A program made the translations under genes and the position numbers. The notes under the pieces were generated by a model. It was not told where the DNA came from. It saw nothing but the letters and a program-made list of their open reading frames with translations, and searched no databases. A stretch of DNA of 44,188 nt from a virus (Duplodnaviria; Heunggongvirae; Uroviricota; Caudoviricetes), in the IMG/VR virus record IMGVR_UViG_2541047701_000003; one strand, written 5' to 3'. Positions 2,603 to 34,081 of the stretch are shown here, in pieces. Each line of letters begins with the position of its first letter. Positions within the stretch are counted from its first letter, which is position 1.

Positions 2603-3655
2603 TCAGGAGCCGATATATTCTGGTTTCATATCTGTCAGTGTCGTTTTATACGCCTCATATAATTCTCCCAGATGTGGTCGTGCAGCATTCAGCGTATTTT
2701 CCAGAGCAATAAATTTTTGTTCTGCTTCTGGATCACCTGATGAAGGCAGGTCATTTATCATCTTCTCAATACGGGCAATAGCATTGAGACGGTGATGACG
2801 CTGAACCACTTTTCCTTTAAGTTCTGTGTAGAGAGCGCCAAGTGTATTTTTATGATCTTCCACTTCCTGGCGAAGTGCTGTTGTTTCTCCGGTGCTTTGT
2901 GCCTGCTCAATACGTTCACGGAAAGCACTGATCCAGTTTTCCCCGGCATCCTGCTCAATAATTGTTGTTTCACGTTCCGCACGGCAGGCGGATGTGTTTT
3001 TATGTTCCTGAACCGGATTAATGATTTTTTCCTGTGGTTCGTCCAGTTCGTCCCGGGTGTACACTCCAAGAATCACTTCAGGGCAATAAAGGCGCGCCCA
3101 GCGTTTCAGAGCCAGATAGGCAAGCTGCTGGCGAGGATCATCGGCCCATAACGTTGAGTTACGTGTTCTGGCCTGCGCCAGAAGTAACTCCAGTACGCGT
3201 GGCTTGCTCTCTCCGCGTAGTGTTGCCTGGACGCGAACACCGATCCCGTTTTCATCGGCCAGCTTCCAGCCAGGTACACGATATTCTTTCCCCTTGTCGT
3301 TCTTCCTGATTTCAAATTTCCCGATAATTTTTTCCCACGGCCCGAACCAGTCATATTCAATACGCCCGGTTAGCGGCCCACGAGTACTGATTACGGCATT
3401 AACCAGTTGCGCTTCATATCCGAGCACACCATTCACAACGAAAGTTTTCTGAGCTACTGCGTAAGGGTTCATTTGCCACTGCATCGCCTGCATGGTGATG
3501 GCCATGCAGTCTGATGGATTTCCCCGGAGGTGTTCCGGTACAGTAGCCATGCCGGAAGCCATTACCTGGGAAAATGTCTGAATTGCAGCCAGGGACTGAG
3601 GGCTGAAAACCGCAACATTAGAGTTAATATTTTCTTGTTGAGTTAATTCGTTCAT
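2603..3655 (-). CDS. Phage single-strand annealing recombinase (RecT/Red-beta-like)
   Basis: 350 aa directly downstream of recE; segment RQQLAYLALKRWARLYCPEVILGVYTRDELDE resembles the conserved Red-beta region; GGAAGGA SD. Confidence 0.6.
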   Translation of the reverse strand: MNELTQQENINSNVAVFSPQSLAAIQTFSQVMASGMATVPEHLRGNPSDCMAITMQAMQWQMNPYAVAQKTFVVNGVLGYEAQLVNAVISTRGPLTGRIEYDWFGPWEKIIGKFEIRKNDKGKEYRVPGWKLADENGIGVRVQATLRGESKPRVLELLLAQARTRNSTLWADDPRQQLAYLALKRWARLYCPEVILGVYTRDELDEPQEKIINPVQEHKNTSACRAERETTIIEQDAGENWISAFRERIEQAQSTGETTALRQEVEDHKNTLGALYTELKGKVVQRHHRLNAIARIEKMINDLPSSGDPEAEQKFIALENTLNAARPHLGELYEAYKTTLTDMKPEYIGS

Positions 3656-29865: not shown

Positions 29866-31011
29866 ATGGCACAGGGCTTGCCTGTATCAAACGTTGTTAA
29901 TGTTGATGTGATCATGTCGCCGCGTGCAGCATCAGGGCGAAATTTTGGTGCATTACTCATTCTCGGCCCGTCCACAATCATTCCGGTAAGTGAGCGCATT
30001 CGCCGTTATTCTGCCGCGGAAGATATTGGAAAAGATTTTGGCGTGGAATCACCAGAATATAAGGCTGCGCAGGTGTTTTTCTCTCAATCACCGAAACCTC
30101 AGGAGGTTTTTGTTGGTCGTTGGGTGAAAACGAAGGGAGACAGCGAACAGGCCACGCCTGAGACGCTGGAGCAGGCTGTGAATGCCATGCTCGATTATAC
30201 TTCATGGTATGGGCTGGGGATTGCAGACGATGCAGATATTCCGGATGCAGACTGGCTGAAAGTGGCTGCGGCGATCGAATCCTCTTCTGTAAGCCGTATT
30301 CTGGCGATTACGACAAGCGATGAGAAATGCCTGCAGACTGCATCCAGCGATGATTTGGCATCAAAACTGAAAACCGCCGGATATTCACGCAGTTTTATTC
30401 AGTATTCATCGGGTAATAAATACGCTGCGTTATCTGCATTTGGCCGGGCATTCACGGTTAATTTCAATGGCAGTAATACCGCGATTACGCTCAAGTTTAA
30501 GCAGGAGCCGGGTGTCGGGTATGAAACACTGACAGTCAGCCAGGCATCGGCACTTGATGCAAAAAACTGCAATGTATTCGTGTACTACCAGAATGATACG
30601 GCTATCCTCCAGCAGGGAGTGATGGCTAACGGCGATTTCTTTGATGAACGCCACGGCCTGGACTGGTTACAGAATTATGTGCAGACCAACCTCTATAACC
30701 TGCTTTATACCAGCACCACGAAAGTTCCCCAGACTGAAGCCGGTATTACCCGACTGTTATCAAATGTTGAAAAATCACTGGATCAGGCCGTTCAGAATGG
30801 ACTGATTGCTCCGGGCGTATGGAACGGGGGCGACCTTGGTCAGTTGTCATCAGGTGACACACTGCCCAAAGGTTATTACGTATACGCCCAGCCGCTGGAT
30901 GAACAGGCACAATCAGAACGTGAAGCCCGTAAGGCTCCGGTGATTCAGGCTGCAATAAAACTTGCAGGCGCGGTTCATTACGCTGACGTACAGATTAACG
31001 TTGTTCGCTAA
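29866..31011 (+). CDS. Contractile tail sheath protein (DUF3383-like)
   Basis: 381 aa followed by tube and chaperone/tape-measure genes; family recalled from composition and order. Confidence 0.6.
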
Positions 31012-31021
31012 GGGGAAGTGA

Positions 31022-31462
31022 ATGTCTACCTATTCTTTTATGGATGTCACTGCGACGCTGACCGGGCCGACCGGTTCGATTGACCTCGGGTACGGTTCGG
31101 CAAGTTCTGAAGAGGGGATTGTGGTTGCGATGGGCGGTCCTAAAAACACCATGACCATCGGTGCTGATGGCGAAGTGATGCACAGTCTCCATGCAGATAA
31201 AAGCGGGACGATTACCGTTAACCTTCTGAAGACATCACCGACAAATAAAAAATTGTCGCTGGCGTATAACGCACAGAGCCAGTCTTCTGCCACATGGGGG
31301 AATAACGTTATCGTGATCCGCAACAAGGTCAGCGGCGACATCATCACGGCACGCAGTGTTGCGTTCCAGAAACAACCGGATAACGCCAACGCTAAAACCG
31401 GTAATACGATGCCGTGGGTGTTTGACTGCGGCAAGATTGACCAGGTTCTCGGGGAGTTTTAA
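31022..31462 (+). CDS. Tail tube protein
   Basis: 146 aa between sheath and chaperone. Confidence 0.55.
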   Translation: MSTYSFMDVTATLTGPTGSIDLGYGSASSEEGIVVAMGGPKNTMTIGADGEVMHSLHADKSGTITVNLLKTSPTNKKLSLAYNAQSQSSATWGNNVIVIRNKVSGDIITARSVAFQKQPDNANAKTGNTMPWVFDCGKIDQVLGEF

Positions 31463-31465
31463 TAC

Positions 31466-31918
31466 ATGGAATTCGAAATCAAAGGCGTGAAATATCGCGT
31501 GGCAAAACTCAGCGTTTTTGACCAGCTGAAAGTGACCCGCAAACTTCTGCCGGTACTGGCAGGAATGATGTCAGATTTCGGGAGCATTTGCTCCCGTTTG
31601 CCTGCTGACGGCAAAATCGACACCGTGAAATTCGAGCAGTTAAAACCGGTGTTTGAAACCATGCTCCCGCGTATCGCTGAGGAACTGTCTTCCCTGACCG
31701 AAGATGACACCGATGCGATTATTCATCCCTGTCTTGCGGTGGTGTCGCGGCGTCATATGGATGGATGGGTGCCGGTATTTACCCAGGGCGAACTGATGTT
31801 TGATGATATTGACTTGCTGGTCATGCTTCATCTGGTGGCGCGGGTGGTCGCCGATTCGCTGGGAAATTTTTTGCCTACACCCCTTACCAGCACGACACAG
31901 AGCCTGCAACAGGGCTGA
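31466..31918 (+). CDS. Tail assembly chaperone (short form)
   Basis: 150 aa directly upstream of tape measure; contains slippery site near 3' end with open -1 frame beyond. Confidence 0.55.
   Translation: MEFEIKGVKYRVAKLSVFDQLKVTRKLLPVLAGMMSDFGSICSRLPADGKIDTVKFEQLKPVFETMLPRIAEELSSLTEDDTDAIIHPCLAVVSRRHMDGWVPVFTQGELMFDDIDLLVMLHLVARVVADSLGNFLPTPLTSTTQSLQQG
31861..31873 (+). other. Candidate -1 programmed ribosomal frameshift slippery sequence (G GGA AAT / T TTT TTG)
   Basis: GGGAAATTTTTTG in zero frame of chaperone; -1 frame stays open to a stop at 32104..32106. Confidence 0.45.
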
Positions 31919-32095
31919 CGTTTAACAGCCTGCCGGACGGGCTGTCCTACCTTCTCAATCCGGTTGACGCCGGGTTAATTCCCTATACAGCACTTAAAGA
32001 TGGCTCTGTCGATTTGTATGACATTGCTCTCTTGAATGACCATCTGGCGGTAAAAGCGGATAACCAGCGGCGCATTGAGAAATGGAGAGAGGATA

Positions 32096-34081
32096 ATGAA
32101 CGCTGAAACTATTAAAGATTTCCTCGTCTCGCTTGGCTTCAGTGTGGATGATGCAGGAGCGAAAAAGTTCGGTTCTGTCCTCGCCGGTACAACTGCAAAT
32201 GTCATCAAAATGGGGCTGGCTGTTGAAGGAGCTGCGCTGTCCGTGGTGGCCTTCACGGCTAAGATCGCCTCCGGCCTGGATAATCTTTACTGGGCGTCAC
32301 AGCGCACCGGTGCGACGGTCCAGGGAATTCAGTCTATTGGCTATGCGGTTTCGCAGGTTGGCGGCAGCGTGGACGCTGCGCGATCTTCTCTGGAAAGCCT
32401 CTCCCGGTTTATTCGTAACAATCCCGGGGCGGAAGGCTTCCTGAATCGCCTTGGTGTACAGACCCGTGACGCCAGCGGCAACATGCGTGACATGGCCGCT
32501 ATTTTTACAGGTGTAGGCCAGAAGCTCAGCGGTATGCCGTATTACCGGGCTAACCAGTATGCGCAGATGCTGGGCATTGACGAAAATACCCTGATGGCCA
32601 TGCGTCGTGGTGTGGGGCAGTTCAGCGCTCAGTATTCAGAAATGGTGAAAGCGATCGGATTTAATGCCGATCAGGCTGCCTTATCGTCAAACCGGTTTAT
32701 GACCTCGCTGAAATCGCTCGGTGAAATGGCCGGGATGGCGCGGGACAAAATCGGATCGAATCTTGCGGACGGACTGGCGGGGCAGATTGATAACCTGCGC
32801 AAAAAGATAATTGAAAATTTTCCCAAAATTGAAGTCACCATCACAAAGGTCATAAAGGGGATCCTCTGGCTGGGTGAGATAGTCGGGCGGGTAGCATTTC
32901 GGATAGTCGATGGTGTCGGAGATATCATCGAGTGGTGGGGGAAACTGGATGCCGAAACGAAAACCCTGATAGAGGTTATCGGCGGTCTGGTTGTCGCCAT
33001 GCGGATACTTAACTCTACTTTCTGGATGTCACCTATAGGGCTGATTACCGGTCTGATCGTGGCTCTCGGTCTCTTGTGGGAAGACTACAAAACATGGAAA
33101 GAAGGCGGTAACAGTCTTATCGACTGGGAAAAATGGCAACCGGCAATAGATAAAGCGAAGGATGCGATCACCTGGCTTCGTGATCACCTTCTGGAACTAA
33201 AAGATGGTGTTGGCGGCTGGCAAAATGCACTGGAAATCCTCGGTACATTCATCGCGGGTGTCTGGGTATCCAAGGTTCTGGGGGCTTTCGGGAAAATATC
33301 TGGTTTGCCGGTACCGCCATGGTTAAAAGGCTGGATGGCTTATGCTGCTTATTTGTACTCCGATCGCGAAAATATTGGTGCCAGTGCGAAGTCATCCTGG
33401 GATTACACGAAACAAAATATTGGAGATTCATTGCGCTGGCTTGGCATTGATACCGATTTTGGTCGTAATCCTCATACCGTAAAAGGCGCAAATATTCAGT
33501 CAGATATTCCAGGTGCTGAGCCGGAACAACATGCACAGGCTACGAAGCGAGGAGAACGGAATAACAATCCGGGAAACCTTAATTTTGCTGGTCAGGCGGG
33601 GGCTTCTCTTGAACGACCGGGCGGGCGATTTGCCAGATTTGAAACTGCTTTTGATGGATTACGGGCTCTTGCTCGTCAGTTAATGCTGTACGCCGGACGG
33701 GGAATAAACAGTGTGGAGAAAATTATCTCTACCTGGGCACCTGCGTCTGATAATAACAACACAACCGCGTATATCAGGGCTGTATCGCAACGACTGGGAG
33801 TGGATCCCCGGGCTGCCCTGAATATGAGCGATCCGCAAACCATGTCAGCATTGATGAGCAGCATTATCCAGCATGAGAATGGAAGAAATATCTATTCTCG
33901 AGAGCTGATTAATAAGGCTGCCGTGGCGGGAATTAGTGGCAAAGTGACAGAGGTTAACCAGCAAAATACCTACCACATTTACGGTGGCGGAGATCCGCAC
34001 GCTGTCGGTAATGAGGTTGCACGTCGGCAACAGTCTGCAAATGCTCAGGTCATGCGAAGTAATCAGGTGAGGGTGGGTTAG
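32096..34081 (+). CDS. Tail tape measure protein
   Basis: 661 aa from ATG with GGAGAGAGG SD; long helical protein with hydrophobic segments after chaperone. Confidence 0.7.
   Translation: MNAETIKDFLVSLGFSVDDAGAKKFGSVLAGTTANVIKMGLAVEGAALSVVAFTAKIASGLDNLYWASQRTGATVQGIQSIGYAVSQVGGSVDAARSSLESLSRFIRNNPGAEGFLNRLGVQTRDASGNMRDMAAIFTGVGQKLSGMPYYRANQYAQMLGIDENTLMAMRRGVGQFSAQYSEMVKAIGFNADQAALSSNRFMTSLKSLGEMAGMARDKIGSNLADGLAGQIDNLRKKIIENFPKIEVTITKVIKGILWLGEIVGRVAFRIVDGVGDIIEWWGKLDAETKTLIEVIGGLVVAMRILNSTFWMSPIGLITGLIVALGLLWEDYKTWKEGGNSLIDWEKWQPAIDKAKDAITWLRDHLLELKDGVGGWQNALEILGTFIAGVWVSKVLGAFGKISGLPVPPWLKGWMAYAAYLYSDRENIGASAKSSWDYTKQNIGDSLRWLGIDTDFGRNPHTVKGANIQSDIPGAEPEQHAQATKRGERNNNPGNLNFAGQAGASLERPGGRFARFETAFDGLRALARQLMLYAGRGINSVEKIISTWAPASDNNNTTAYIRAVSQRLGVDPRAALNMSDPQTMSALMSSIIQHENGRNIYSRELINKAAVAGISGKVTEVNQQNTYHIYGGGDPHAVGNEVARRQQSANAQVMRSNQVRVG

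Follow-up and report, generated by a model that had tools for sequence, protein, structure and literature searches.

Organization of the Locus

The window analysed here, i.e., the whole stretch of 44,188 nucleotides numbered from its first letter, comes from a temperate, contractile-tailed E. coli prophage that is a relative of Salmonella SEN34, Yersinia YP3 and Klebsiella Mulock. Its tail genes follow the order sheath, tube, chaperone, −1 ORF and tape measure, and an overlapping ORF pair is situated between the tube and tape measure genes (Table 1). The gene directly upstream of the chaperone probably encodes the tail tube, which is suggested by its position, by the ‘putative tail tube protein’ of phage Magia and by the DUF3277 label in RefSeq. 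The tape-measure ATG at 32096, preceded by GGAGAGAGG at 32084-92, agrees with the RefSeq start.

Table 1. Features of the tail gene region of the window.
Feature	Coordinates	Strand	Basis and remarks
Tail sheath gene	29866..31011	+	PF11863 DUF3383, E=5e-101; phrog_205 ‘tail sheath’, E=1e-135
Tail tube protein gene (probable), directly upstream of chaperone	31022..31462	+	PF11681 KPP10_Orf10 / DUF3277, E=8.8e-61
Tail assembly chaperone, short form, zero frame	31466..31918	+	ORF; 150 aa, 16.7 kDa; stop TGA 31916-18
Slippery patch G_GGA_AAT_TTT_TTG (GGGAAATTTTTTG)	31861..31873	+	Three overlapping in-phase X_XXY_YYZ heptamers
−1 frame extension, 77 codons and TGA, readable only after a shift	31873..32106	+	Open frame
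DUF6889 domain, residues 173-211 of the 213-aa fusion	31981..32097	+	Pfam PF21829 and phrog_4364
Tape measure protein gene, 661 aa	32096..34081	+	phrog_2276 ‘tail length tape measure protein’, E=1.9e-265

The earlier note on this DNA proposed comparing the fused translation with tail chaperone families, and both of its parts were matched to conserved families. The short form belongs to Pfam PF21822 Phage_TAC_15 over residues 6-136 (104.1 bits, gathering threshold 22, E=9.6e-30) and to phrog_1688 ‘tail assembly chaperone’ (E=8e-61), while the extension matches PF21829 DUF6889 (70.6 bits, gathering threshold 23.9, E=8.9e-20) and phrog_4364 (E=1.8e-23). A PDB sequence search returned nothing relevant (best E=0.76), NCBIfam gave no match, and a literature search for DUF6889 retrieved no paper mentioning the family. 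AlphaFold2 modelling of the in-frame fusion P0001 from a 40-sequence alignment reached a mean pLDDT of 40 and a pTM of 0.24, values too low to base a fold search on.

Between 31813 and the TGA at 32104-06 the −1 frame has no stop, 97 codons in all. Elsewhere in 31000-32600 the same frame contains 34 stops in ~436 codons, which gives, as a rough estimate, a chance of ~4e-4 for a stop-free gap of 97 codons; in a null test inside the window (ORFs ≥100 aa that have a long extension in the −1 frame) the −1 frame past many stops is simply the next gene. No ATG, GTG or TTG is present in the −1 frame between 31813 and 32014, i.e., the −1 ORF runs for 67 codons without a start codon. The first ~15 codons of the extension overlap the tail of the short form, then a linker and the DUF6889 domain follow. 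Since the tape-measure ATG lies at 32096, the extension overlaps the tape measure gene by 11 nt. The earlier note had claimed this overlap, and its coordinates for the end of the chaperone ORF, for the run and for the end of the open −1 frame are all correct.

The Slippery Patch and Conservation of the −1 Frame

Read in the zero frame, the patch is CTG GGA AAT TTT TTG CCT and includes three in-phase heptamers, GGGAAAT (31861-67), AAATTTT (31864-70) and TTTTTTG (31867-73), that sit 45-57 nt ahead of the chaperone stop. The T TTT TTG heptamer, to which attention had been drawn before, is indeed in X_XXY_YYZ phase; G_GGA_AAT and A_AAT_TTT, not noted earlier, are in phase as well. By itself the 13-mer is statistically unremarkable (one match in the window; 19 of 100 shuffles yield at least one match at ≤1 mismatch), and its significance rests on comparative data. 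In 74 unique relatives GGA is used 69 times (8% background usage), AAT accounts for 70/70 Asn codons (36% background; NNT in 74/74), TTT for 73/73 (54% background) and TTG for 68/69 (11% background), and T_TTT_TTN is present in 73 of the 74. The third-position entropy is 0-0.5 bit at the slippery codons vs. 1-1.7 upstream. The slippery codons are fixed at synonymous sites far above the codon-usage expectation.

For the extension, 80 related loci were compared (77 species-representative genome loci, the window, and phages YP3 and SEN34). At 77 of them, in many genera, the −1 frame contains the DUF6889 part, although relatives share phylogeny and such conservation counts are not independent events. 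The tblastn match typically begins at the first codon past the T-run. Entropy by −1-frame codon position is 0.77/0.64/1.39 (73 sequences) and 0.96/0.76/1.35 inside the overlap with the short-form tail, and within the 10 codons that follow the slip amino-acid identity reaches 0.59 in the −1 frame vs. 0.34 in the zero frame; the −1-frame residues ARTPRQRD are conserved within the chaperone ORF. From the slip site on, the −1 frame carries a coding signature. A lack of conservation in related phages, which the earlier note named as an argument against the fusion, is not what is found: the extension is conserved, and by these measures under coding constraint, in about 75 prophages and phages.

At 30-40% identity, relatives still have the −1 arrangement, and the homologous NLG-x-F position is occupied there by different in-phase heptamers, i.e., C_CCT_TTT in Magia and BgManors32 (CCCTTTTAT), G_GGA_AAT alone in Bordetella IFTN9 (GGGAAATAC) and Salmonella L025 (GGGAAATATTTTG), T_TTT_TTT in PSTCR3, and G_GGT_TTT_TTC in Ralstonia. 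The arrangement is intact also in Burkholderia, Acinetobacter, Bordetella and Ralstonia phages. In some copies the fusion frame is broken by indels (E. coli IAI1, with a 1-nt deletion, and locus L036), and at loci L011 and L078 the chaperone is disrupted.

A Probable Programmed Frameshift and Its Alternatives

Taken together, these sequences are very probably explained by programmed −1 ribosomal frameshifting of the G/GT type in the gene for the tail assembly chaperone, and a frameshift at this place is the ordinary arrangement for tailed phages. The features by which the G/GT type is recognized are found here, namely the position of the ORF pair, the in-phase heptamers, a −1 ORF without an initiation signal and conservation despite divergence. 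The G/GT class described by Xu, Hendrix and Duda in 2004 is said to comprise two proteins with a common N-terminus, made in a fixed ratio, both needed for tail assembly and absent from virions. The putative long-form chaperone fusion put forward in the earlier note is supported by both family matches, by site conservation and by the coding constraint on the −1 frame. A literature search for an experimental demonstration of this frameshift found none. We infer that the ribosome rather than RNA polymerase slips, and the choice of heptamer, the efficiency and the role of DUF6889 are assigned in the same way.

The first alternative, which we regard as improbable, is that RNA polymerase adds one U in the T6 run (31867-31872), so that a subpopulation of mRNA encodes the fusion in frame. 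The T6 run is invariant in 73/74 enterobacterial relatives (some have T7), assemblies include a T7 DNA variant (P0001) that codes for the 213-aa fusion in frame, which implies that the run is indel-prone, and the expected product, …GNFFAYTPYQ…, is the same as if ribosomes had shifted on either of the two heptamers upstream. However, known bacterial transcriptional slippage sites are runs of ~8-9 or more A/T, while the run is only T6 in the window and in 68/74 relatives and T7 in a few. Moreover, distant relatives hold the −1 arrangement with T4 (Magia, BgManors32) or with no run at all (IFTN9, L025), and their motifs stay in the X_XXY_YYZ phase, which is relevant to ribosomes only.

A second alternative assumes that DUF6889 is an independent small gene, translated from CTG 31942 or another internal codon, maybe by re-initiation past the chaperone stop, with no frameshift involved. 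Existing annotation speaks for it: PGAP/RefSeq calls a 54-aa ‘DUF6889 family protein’ (WP_071819661.1) in E. coli genomes, with CTG as the start because the −1 frame offers no ATG, GTG or TTG before 32014, a short ORF is called at this position in some phage records, and 28 stand-alone DUF6889 proteins are deposited in the protein database. These stand-alone calls, however, have ragged N-termini and range from 43 to 108 aa, and the fused query gives 671 matches, nearly all of them short-form chaperones among the matches listed, vs. those 28. The lack of a usual start codon in the −1 frame of the window between 31813 and 32014 likewise argues against an independent gene, and among relatives the first start-like codon of the frame is widely scattered, with no conserved start and none at all in locus L068. 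In addition, the amino-acid constraint on the −1 frame begins at the slippery site, inside the chaperone ORF and ahead of every candidate start, and an independent gene would not explain why the slippery codons are fixed at synonymous positions, which makes this reading very improbable. The view that the −1 ORF is an unexpressed decaying remnant or a chance open frame, for which the broken copies mentioned above could be cited, may be considered effectively refuted by the strong purifying-selection signature in ~73 distinct sequences, by the Pfam family match, and by the frame being intact at 77/80 loci and in Burkholderia, Acinetobacter, Bordetella and Ralstonia phages.

Proposed Course of Frameshifting and Stimulatory Elements

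Under the favored programmed ribosomal frameshift, most ribosomes would translate 31466..31918 into the 150-aa chaperone, and a minority would slip back by 1 nt on G_GGA_AAT_TTT_TTG and continue in the −1 frame to the TGA at 32104-06. The long form would thus have 213 aa (~24 kDa) and consist of chaperone residues 1 to 135-136, a variable linker and the C-terminal DUF6889 domain. A slip on T_TTT_TTG would create the junction peptide SLGNFLAYTPYQ (…SLGNFL/AYTPYQ…), while a slip on A_AAT_TTT or G_GGA_AAT would create SLGNFFAYTPYQ (…SLGNF/FAYTPYQ…). If lambda gpG/gpGT and P2 E/E+E′ serve as a guide, the N-terminal part common to both forms may coat the tape measure protein, whose gene lies directly downstream, the additional domain found only in the rare long form may recruit the tube protein, and a fixed slip frequency would set the short:long ratio.

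A downstream stimulatory stem-loop, which the earlier note suggested looking for, was found neither in the single sequence nor in the 73-sequence consensus. The fold of 31874-31960 (−20.9 kcal/mol, z = −0.69) is not unusually stable, and RNAalifold on 73 sequences gave 2 pairs at −0.31 kcal/mol with no covariation, i.e., no conserved stimulator structure. The hairpin or pseudoknot located 5-9 nt past the heptamer in the dnaX / IS3-IS911 type is absent here. For that type the SD-like element is expected ~10-14 nt 5′ of the heptamer, and GGGTGG at 31842-47 lies 13 nt 5′ of G_GGA_AAT, whereas its distance to the other two heptamers is 16 and 19 nt. At this motif Val is encoded by GTG in 91% of cases, yet the R-V-V peptide forces most of these bases, and GGGTGG is a weak candidate for an SD-like stimulator.

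In an E. coli reporter devoid of stimulators each of the three heptamers gave ~0.07-0.12% frameshifting vs. 0.055% background, and A-site AAG is far more slip-prone in E. coli than AAU (0.28/3.8/43% for GGGAAAG vs. 0.07/0.11/1.05% for GGGAAAU; PMC4066793 Table S3). Since no conserved stimulator was found and the heptamers are weak in the reporter, a useful efficiency in the native context is an assumption. A stimulatory element is nevertheless unnecessary to explain the data. One possible, though rather doubtful, explanation is that the 13-nt patch acts as a composite site, with three consecutive chances to slip and two distinct long forms (…GNFL-A… and …GNF-F-A…), and that a useful frequency is reached stimulator-free or through an unrecognised stimulator, for example GGGUGG ahead of the patch or the nascent peptide LVARVVADSLGNF. 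For each of the three heptamers there is a relative that uses it alone. If the composite site were true, this family would be a naturally occurring system in which to study frameshifting that is additive or needs no stimulator. The −1-frame stops directly 5′ of the T-run in loci L068 and L073 were considered as proof of T_TTT_TTG and rejected; they rule out only slips upstream of the T-run and do not single out this heptamer, since ribosomes could also slip while the first TTT occupies the A site.

Consequences for Annotation

The value of the locus lies mainly in annotation, and it brings nothing new on the working of phage tails or of frameshifting. In hundreds of E. coli, Salmonella and Klebsiella prophages, as well as in several phage records, an apparent gap of 177 nt separates chaperone and tape measure, and other records contain a spurious ORF of 43-108 aa named ‘DUF6889 family protein’ or, wrongly, ‘NTP pyrophosphohydrolase’. 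Judging from sequence comparison, the real product behind the gap or the spurious ORF is most likely the 213-aa frameshift fusion. DUF6889 thereby gains a probable identity as the frameshift-encoded C-terminal domain of Phage_TAC_15 chaperones and, by analogy, may be the counterpart of the lambda T domain.

Comparison with Known Systems

The class of frameshift arrangement and the annotations in Mulock and Magia were already known, and the locus in the window is new as a further case. Klebsiella phage Mulock (MN098327) carries CPT_Mulock_014/015, which bear the names ‘tape measure chaperone’ and, for the longer form, ‘tape measure chaperone frameshift product’. Its homologous proteins have 57.8% identity to the conceptual fusion, the identical 13-nt GGGAAATTTTTTG stands at the same position, the gene order is the same, and its DUF6889 part, also in the −1 frame, ends within the tape measure gene. 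It is, however, another phage of another host, and its frameshift annotation is a curator's prediction; neither the Mulock genome announcement nor the SEN34 paper discusses a frameshift. In Burkholderia phage Magia (CPT_Magia_015/016) the homologue is likewise annotated as a frameshift product (MT701587; PMC7883833). Both families recur there, again in a −1 arrangement that lies between the genes for tube and tape measure, but identity is only ~36%, and at the slippery site C_CCT_TTT precedes an A, the T6 run and GGGAAAT both being absent.

For P2 E/E+E′ a −1 shift at TTTTTTG with no downstream hairpin was experimentally demonstrated (PMC3091744, citing Christie et al., 2002; Xu, Hendrix and Duda, 2004), and the heptamer that the earlier note gave for P2 is correct. 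P2 resembles the locus in its contractile tail, in the TTTTTTG heptamer, in the gene lying just upstream of the tape measure, in the absence of a hairpin and in the common N-terminus of the products. It differs in that its products have 91 and 142 aa as compared to 150 and 213 aa here, and in that TTTTTTG is here abutted by two further in-phase heptamers; in Pfam the fusion matches only PF21822 and PF21829 at E≤0.01, with no homology to the P2 gpE family. The heptamer of lambda is G_GGA_AAG, and the G_GGA_AAT of the window differs from it in the last base only. Although lambda is a siphovirus with unrelated sequence families, its gpG/gpGT likewise pair a chaperone with a rare −1 fusion, the extra domain of which is thought to link tape measure and tube (PMC5009743, reviewing Levin, Hendrix and Casjens, 1993; Xu et al., 2013, 2014).

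Architecture of the Locus

The locus lies exactly where tailed phages encode the G/GT-type pair, i.e., a tail chaperone and its −1 fusion, as identified by Pfam and PHROGs searches of the parts.

Features of the tail gene region (window coordinates)
Feature	Coordinates	Strand	Source or match
Tail sheath, DUF3383	29866-31011		Pfam/PHROGs
Tail tube, KPP10_Orf10/DUF3277	31022-31462		Pfam/PHROGs
Tail assembly chaperone ORF, 150 aa	31466..31918	+	ORF listing over region 31300-32400; PF21822 Phage_TAC_15, 9.6e-30; phrog_1688, 8e-61
Slippery string GGGAAATTTTTTG	31861..31873	+	sequence inspection
Tape measure	32096-34081		phrog_2276, 1.9e-265
Dit-like, plug and hub baseplate proteins	after tape measure		Pfam/PHROGs

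The zero frame across the slippery patch reads CTG GGA AAT TTT TTG CCT, thus T_TTT_TTG (31867-73), the heptamer proposed in the earlier note, stands in the X_XXY_YYZ phase for simultaneous −1 slippage; two more in-phase heptamers, G_GGA_AAT (31861-67) and A_AAT_TTT (31864-70), overlap it. The −1 frame, claimed to continue to 32106, is open from 31813 to a TGA at 32104-06 (97 codons, 77 of them past the T-run) and contains no ATG, GTG or TTG upstream of 32014; outside this stretch the same frame holds 34 stops between 31000 and 32600. The proposed overlap with the tape-measure start amounts to 11 nt, since the tape-measure ATG, preceded by GGAGAGAGG, lies at 32096. When the fused translation was searched against tail chaperone families, the chaperone part matched PF21822 and phrog_1688, and the extension matched PF21829 (DUF6889; 70.6 bits, 8.9e-20) and phrog_4364 (1.8e-23). 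The PDB and NCBIfam searches returned no relevant matches, and AlphaFold2 gave no usable model for the fusion (pLDDT 40). In a chance-expectation test the 13-mer GGGAAATTTTTTG by itself is statistically unremarkable, and the case for the predicted frameshift rests on context and comparison.

Residues ~407-650 of the tape measure (C-terminal third) match endolysin/lytic transglycosylase families (phrog_873, phrog_7182), which suggests a built-in cell-wall hydrolase; RefSeq names this protein "lytic transglycosylase" in some genomes.

Conservation among Enterobacterial Loci

Scanning the chaperone alignment against species-representative genomes gave 80 Enterobacterales loci (38-84% identity); once the window, YP3 and SEN34 were added and truncated contigs dropped, the set compared again comprised 80 loci. 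In 77 of them the DUF6889 homology is in the −1 frame with respect to the chaperone, and its tblastn alignment typically starts at the first codon past the T-run. All three exceptions have indels: E. coli IAI1 has lost one G of the window's GGG at 31939-41 (about 3138-3140 in its own locus), which puts DUF6889 out of the −1 frame, Enterobacter sp. R1 shows a comparable break, and in L011 the chaperone itself is broken, as it is in Apirhabdus. Prophage decay or sequencing error seems to account for these four copies.

Among 74 distinct sequences, the codons of the L-G-N-F-L peptide are nearly fixed: CTG in 65, GGA in 69/74, AAT in 70/70 Asn (third base T in 74/74), TTT in 73/73 and TTG in 68/69, vs. 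synonymous shares of 8% (GGA), 36% (AAT), 54% (TTT) and 11% (TTG) in the rest of the same genes. Third-position entropy is 0-0.5 bit across these five codons, compared with 1-1.7 bits over the preceding 20 codons. By −1-frame codon position, entropy is 0.77/0.64/1.39 downstream of the patch and already 0.96/0.76/1.35 within the 15-codon overlap with the end of the short form. In the first 10 codons past the slip, where ARTPRQRD is conserved in the −1 frame, mean pairwise amino-acid identity is 0.59 in that frame vs. 0.34 in the zero frame. Fixed slippery codons and −1-frame constraint from the slip site onward argue, at the level of sequence, that this frame must be entered at the patch and not at an internal start.

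In Izhakiella australiensis (2812-3631) the −1 ORF has 273 codons, vs. about 95 usually, and apparently continues into the tape measure region; a stop may have been lost or an indel acquired. Enterobacterial-type chaperones (53-75% identity) also occur under non-enterobacterial hosts, i.e., Chryseobacterium sp. 18061, Bacillus sp. AFS073361 and Elizabethkingia phage EKP1, which suggests contamination or host misassignment; T_TTT_TTG is kept in the first and the last, EKP1 having the identical GGGAAATTTTTTG.

Distant Relatives and Alternative Origins of the Proposed Long Form

The conceptual fusion, compared by tblastn with phage genomes, gave 40 records, and DUF6889 was in the −1 frame in every record examined. 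A slip-prone motif occupies the homologous NLG-x-F position: GGGAAATTTTTTG in Mulock and EKP1, GGGAAATTTTA in Acinetobacter Ab105-1phi, G_GGA_AAT alone in Bordetella IFTN9 and also in a Salmonella locus (L025), C_CCT_TTT in Magia and BgManors32, GGGCCCTTTTA in WC36-2, T_TTT_TTT in Providencia PSTCR3, G_GGT_TTT_TTC in Ralstonia phage PY059, and non-canonical N_NNT_TTT in E192a and ZHS. Replacement of the motif with phase and position kept is what ribosomal frameshifting would predict.

Such turnover counts against transcriptional slippage on the T6 run, because several relatives manage without any long homopolymer; the run is also short, and although a T7 DNA variant encoding an in-frame fusion exists, this origin of the long form is quite improbable. 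The variant, P0001 from a Logan assembly (window 31466-32106; cluster of 16 member sequences), would give only the long form, 213 aa with the junction GNFFAYTPYQ, and its T7 may be a homopolymer indel or assembly error. That DUF6889 is an independent gene is very improbable: it has no start codon, the called proteins are ragged (43-108 aa) and form only 28 clusters vs. 671 matches to the fused query (of those listed, almost all are short-form chaperones), and coding constraint begins upstream of any candidate start. A non-expressed relic is virtually ruled out by the signature of purifying selection.

Candidate Stimulators, Heptamers and Predicted Products

The stimulatory stem-loop that the earlier note proposed to look for did not emerge: the predicted fold of the 87 nt past the patch is no more stable than those of shuffled sequences (z = −0.69), and the 73-sequence RNAalifold consensus there has two trivial pairs only (−0.31 kcal/mol). 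A weak SD-like GGGTGG (31842-47) lies 13 nt 5′ of G_GGA_AAT, and 91% of relatives use GTG for its Val codon; the string could act as a stimulator, or simply mirror the R-V-V peptide, which largely dictates its bases. In E. coli reporters, −1 frameshifting without stimulator, with IS911 stimulators and with the IS3 pseudoknot was 0.069, 0.11 and 1.05% for GGGAAAU, 0.070, 0.36 and 11.4% for AAAUUUU, and 0.118, 0.25 and 0.77% for UUUUUUG (PMC4066793 Table S3). T_TTT_TTN is the most conserved candidate in the enterobacterial clade, and U followed by a UUU codon is the family-wide common denominator. In two loci (L068, L073) −1-frame stops just 5′ of the T-run rule out only shifts upstream of the run. 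The two candidate long forms differ by one residue, with computed masses of 23.95 kDa (…GNFL-A…) and 23.99 kDa (…GNF-F-A…). The triple overlapping heptamer without detectable stimulator is the sole mildly unusual feature.

Existing Annotation and Known Systems

The E. coli prophage region is present in 315 of 5,426 complete genomes. It shares 98% identity with Escherichia phages vB_EcoM-606R2 and relatives; the figure falls to 84% for Yersinia phage YP3 and to 77% for Salmonella phage SEN34. None of these phage records annotates a frameshift, and those of YP3 and SEN34 leave a 177-nt unannotated gap between chaperone and tape measure. RefSeq lists a 54-aa "DUF6889 family protein" (WP_071819661.1) starting at CTG 31942, and the literature search found DUF6889 named in no paper. 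Stand-alone DUF6889 ORFs (P0122-P0148; window 31942-32106) are often called "NTP pyrophosphohydrolase" at NCBI, including several Klebsiella prophage records; the label is without any sequence support and looks like propagated misannotation. Corrected annotation of DUF6889 ORFs is the practical use of these results.

Anatomy, families and comparative conservation thus support the originally proposed programmed −1 frameshift, and the site is most likely an ordinary example, not annotated until now, of the well-known tail-assembly-chaperone class. The likeness to P2 drawn in the earlier note is accurate, as E/E+E′ shifts at TTTTTTG with no downstream hairpin (PMC3091744). The mechanism, the roughly 30:1 ratio and the wide conservation of lambda G/GT have been reviewed (PMC5009743). 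Homologues are already annotated as frameshifts in two phages: the GenBank record of Klebsiella phage Mulock links both ORFs under the name "tape measure chaperone frameshift product" (its tape measure gene, CPT_Mulock_016, 2107 onward, is itself labelled "tape measure chaperone," probably a labelling slip), and that of Magia joins them likewise, its genome announcement reporting the programmed frameshift (PMC7883833).
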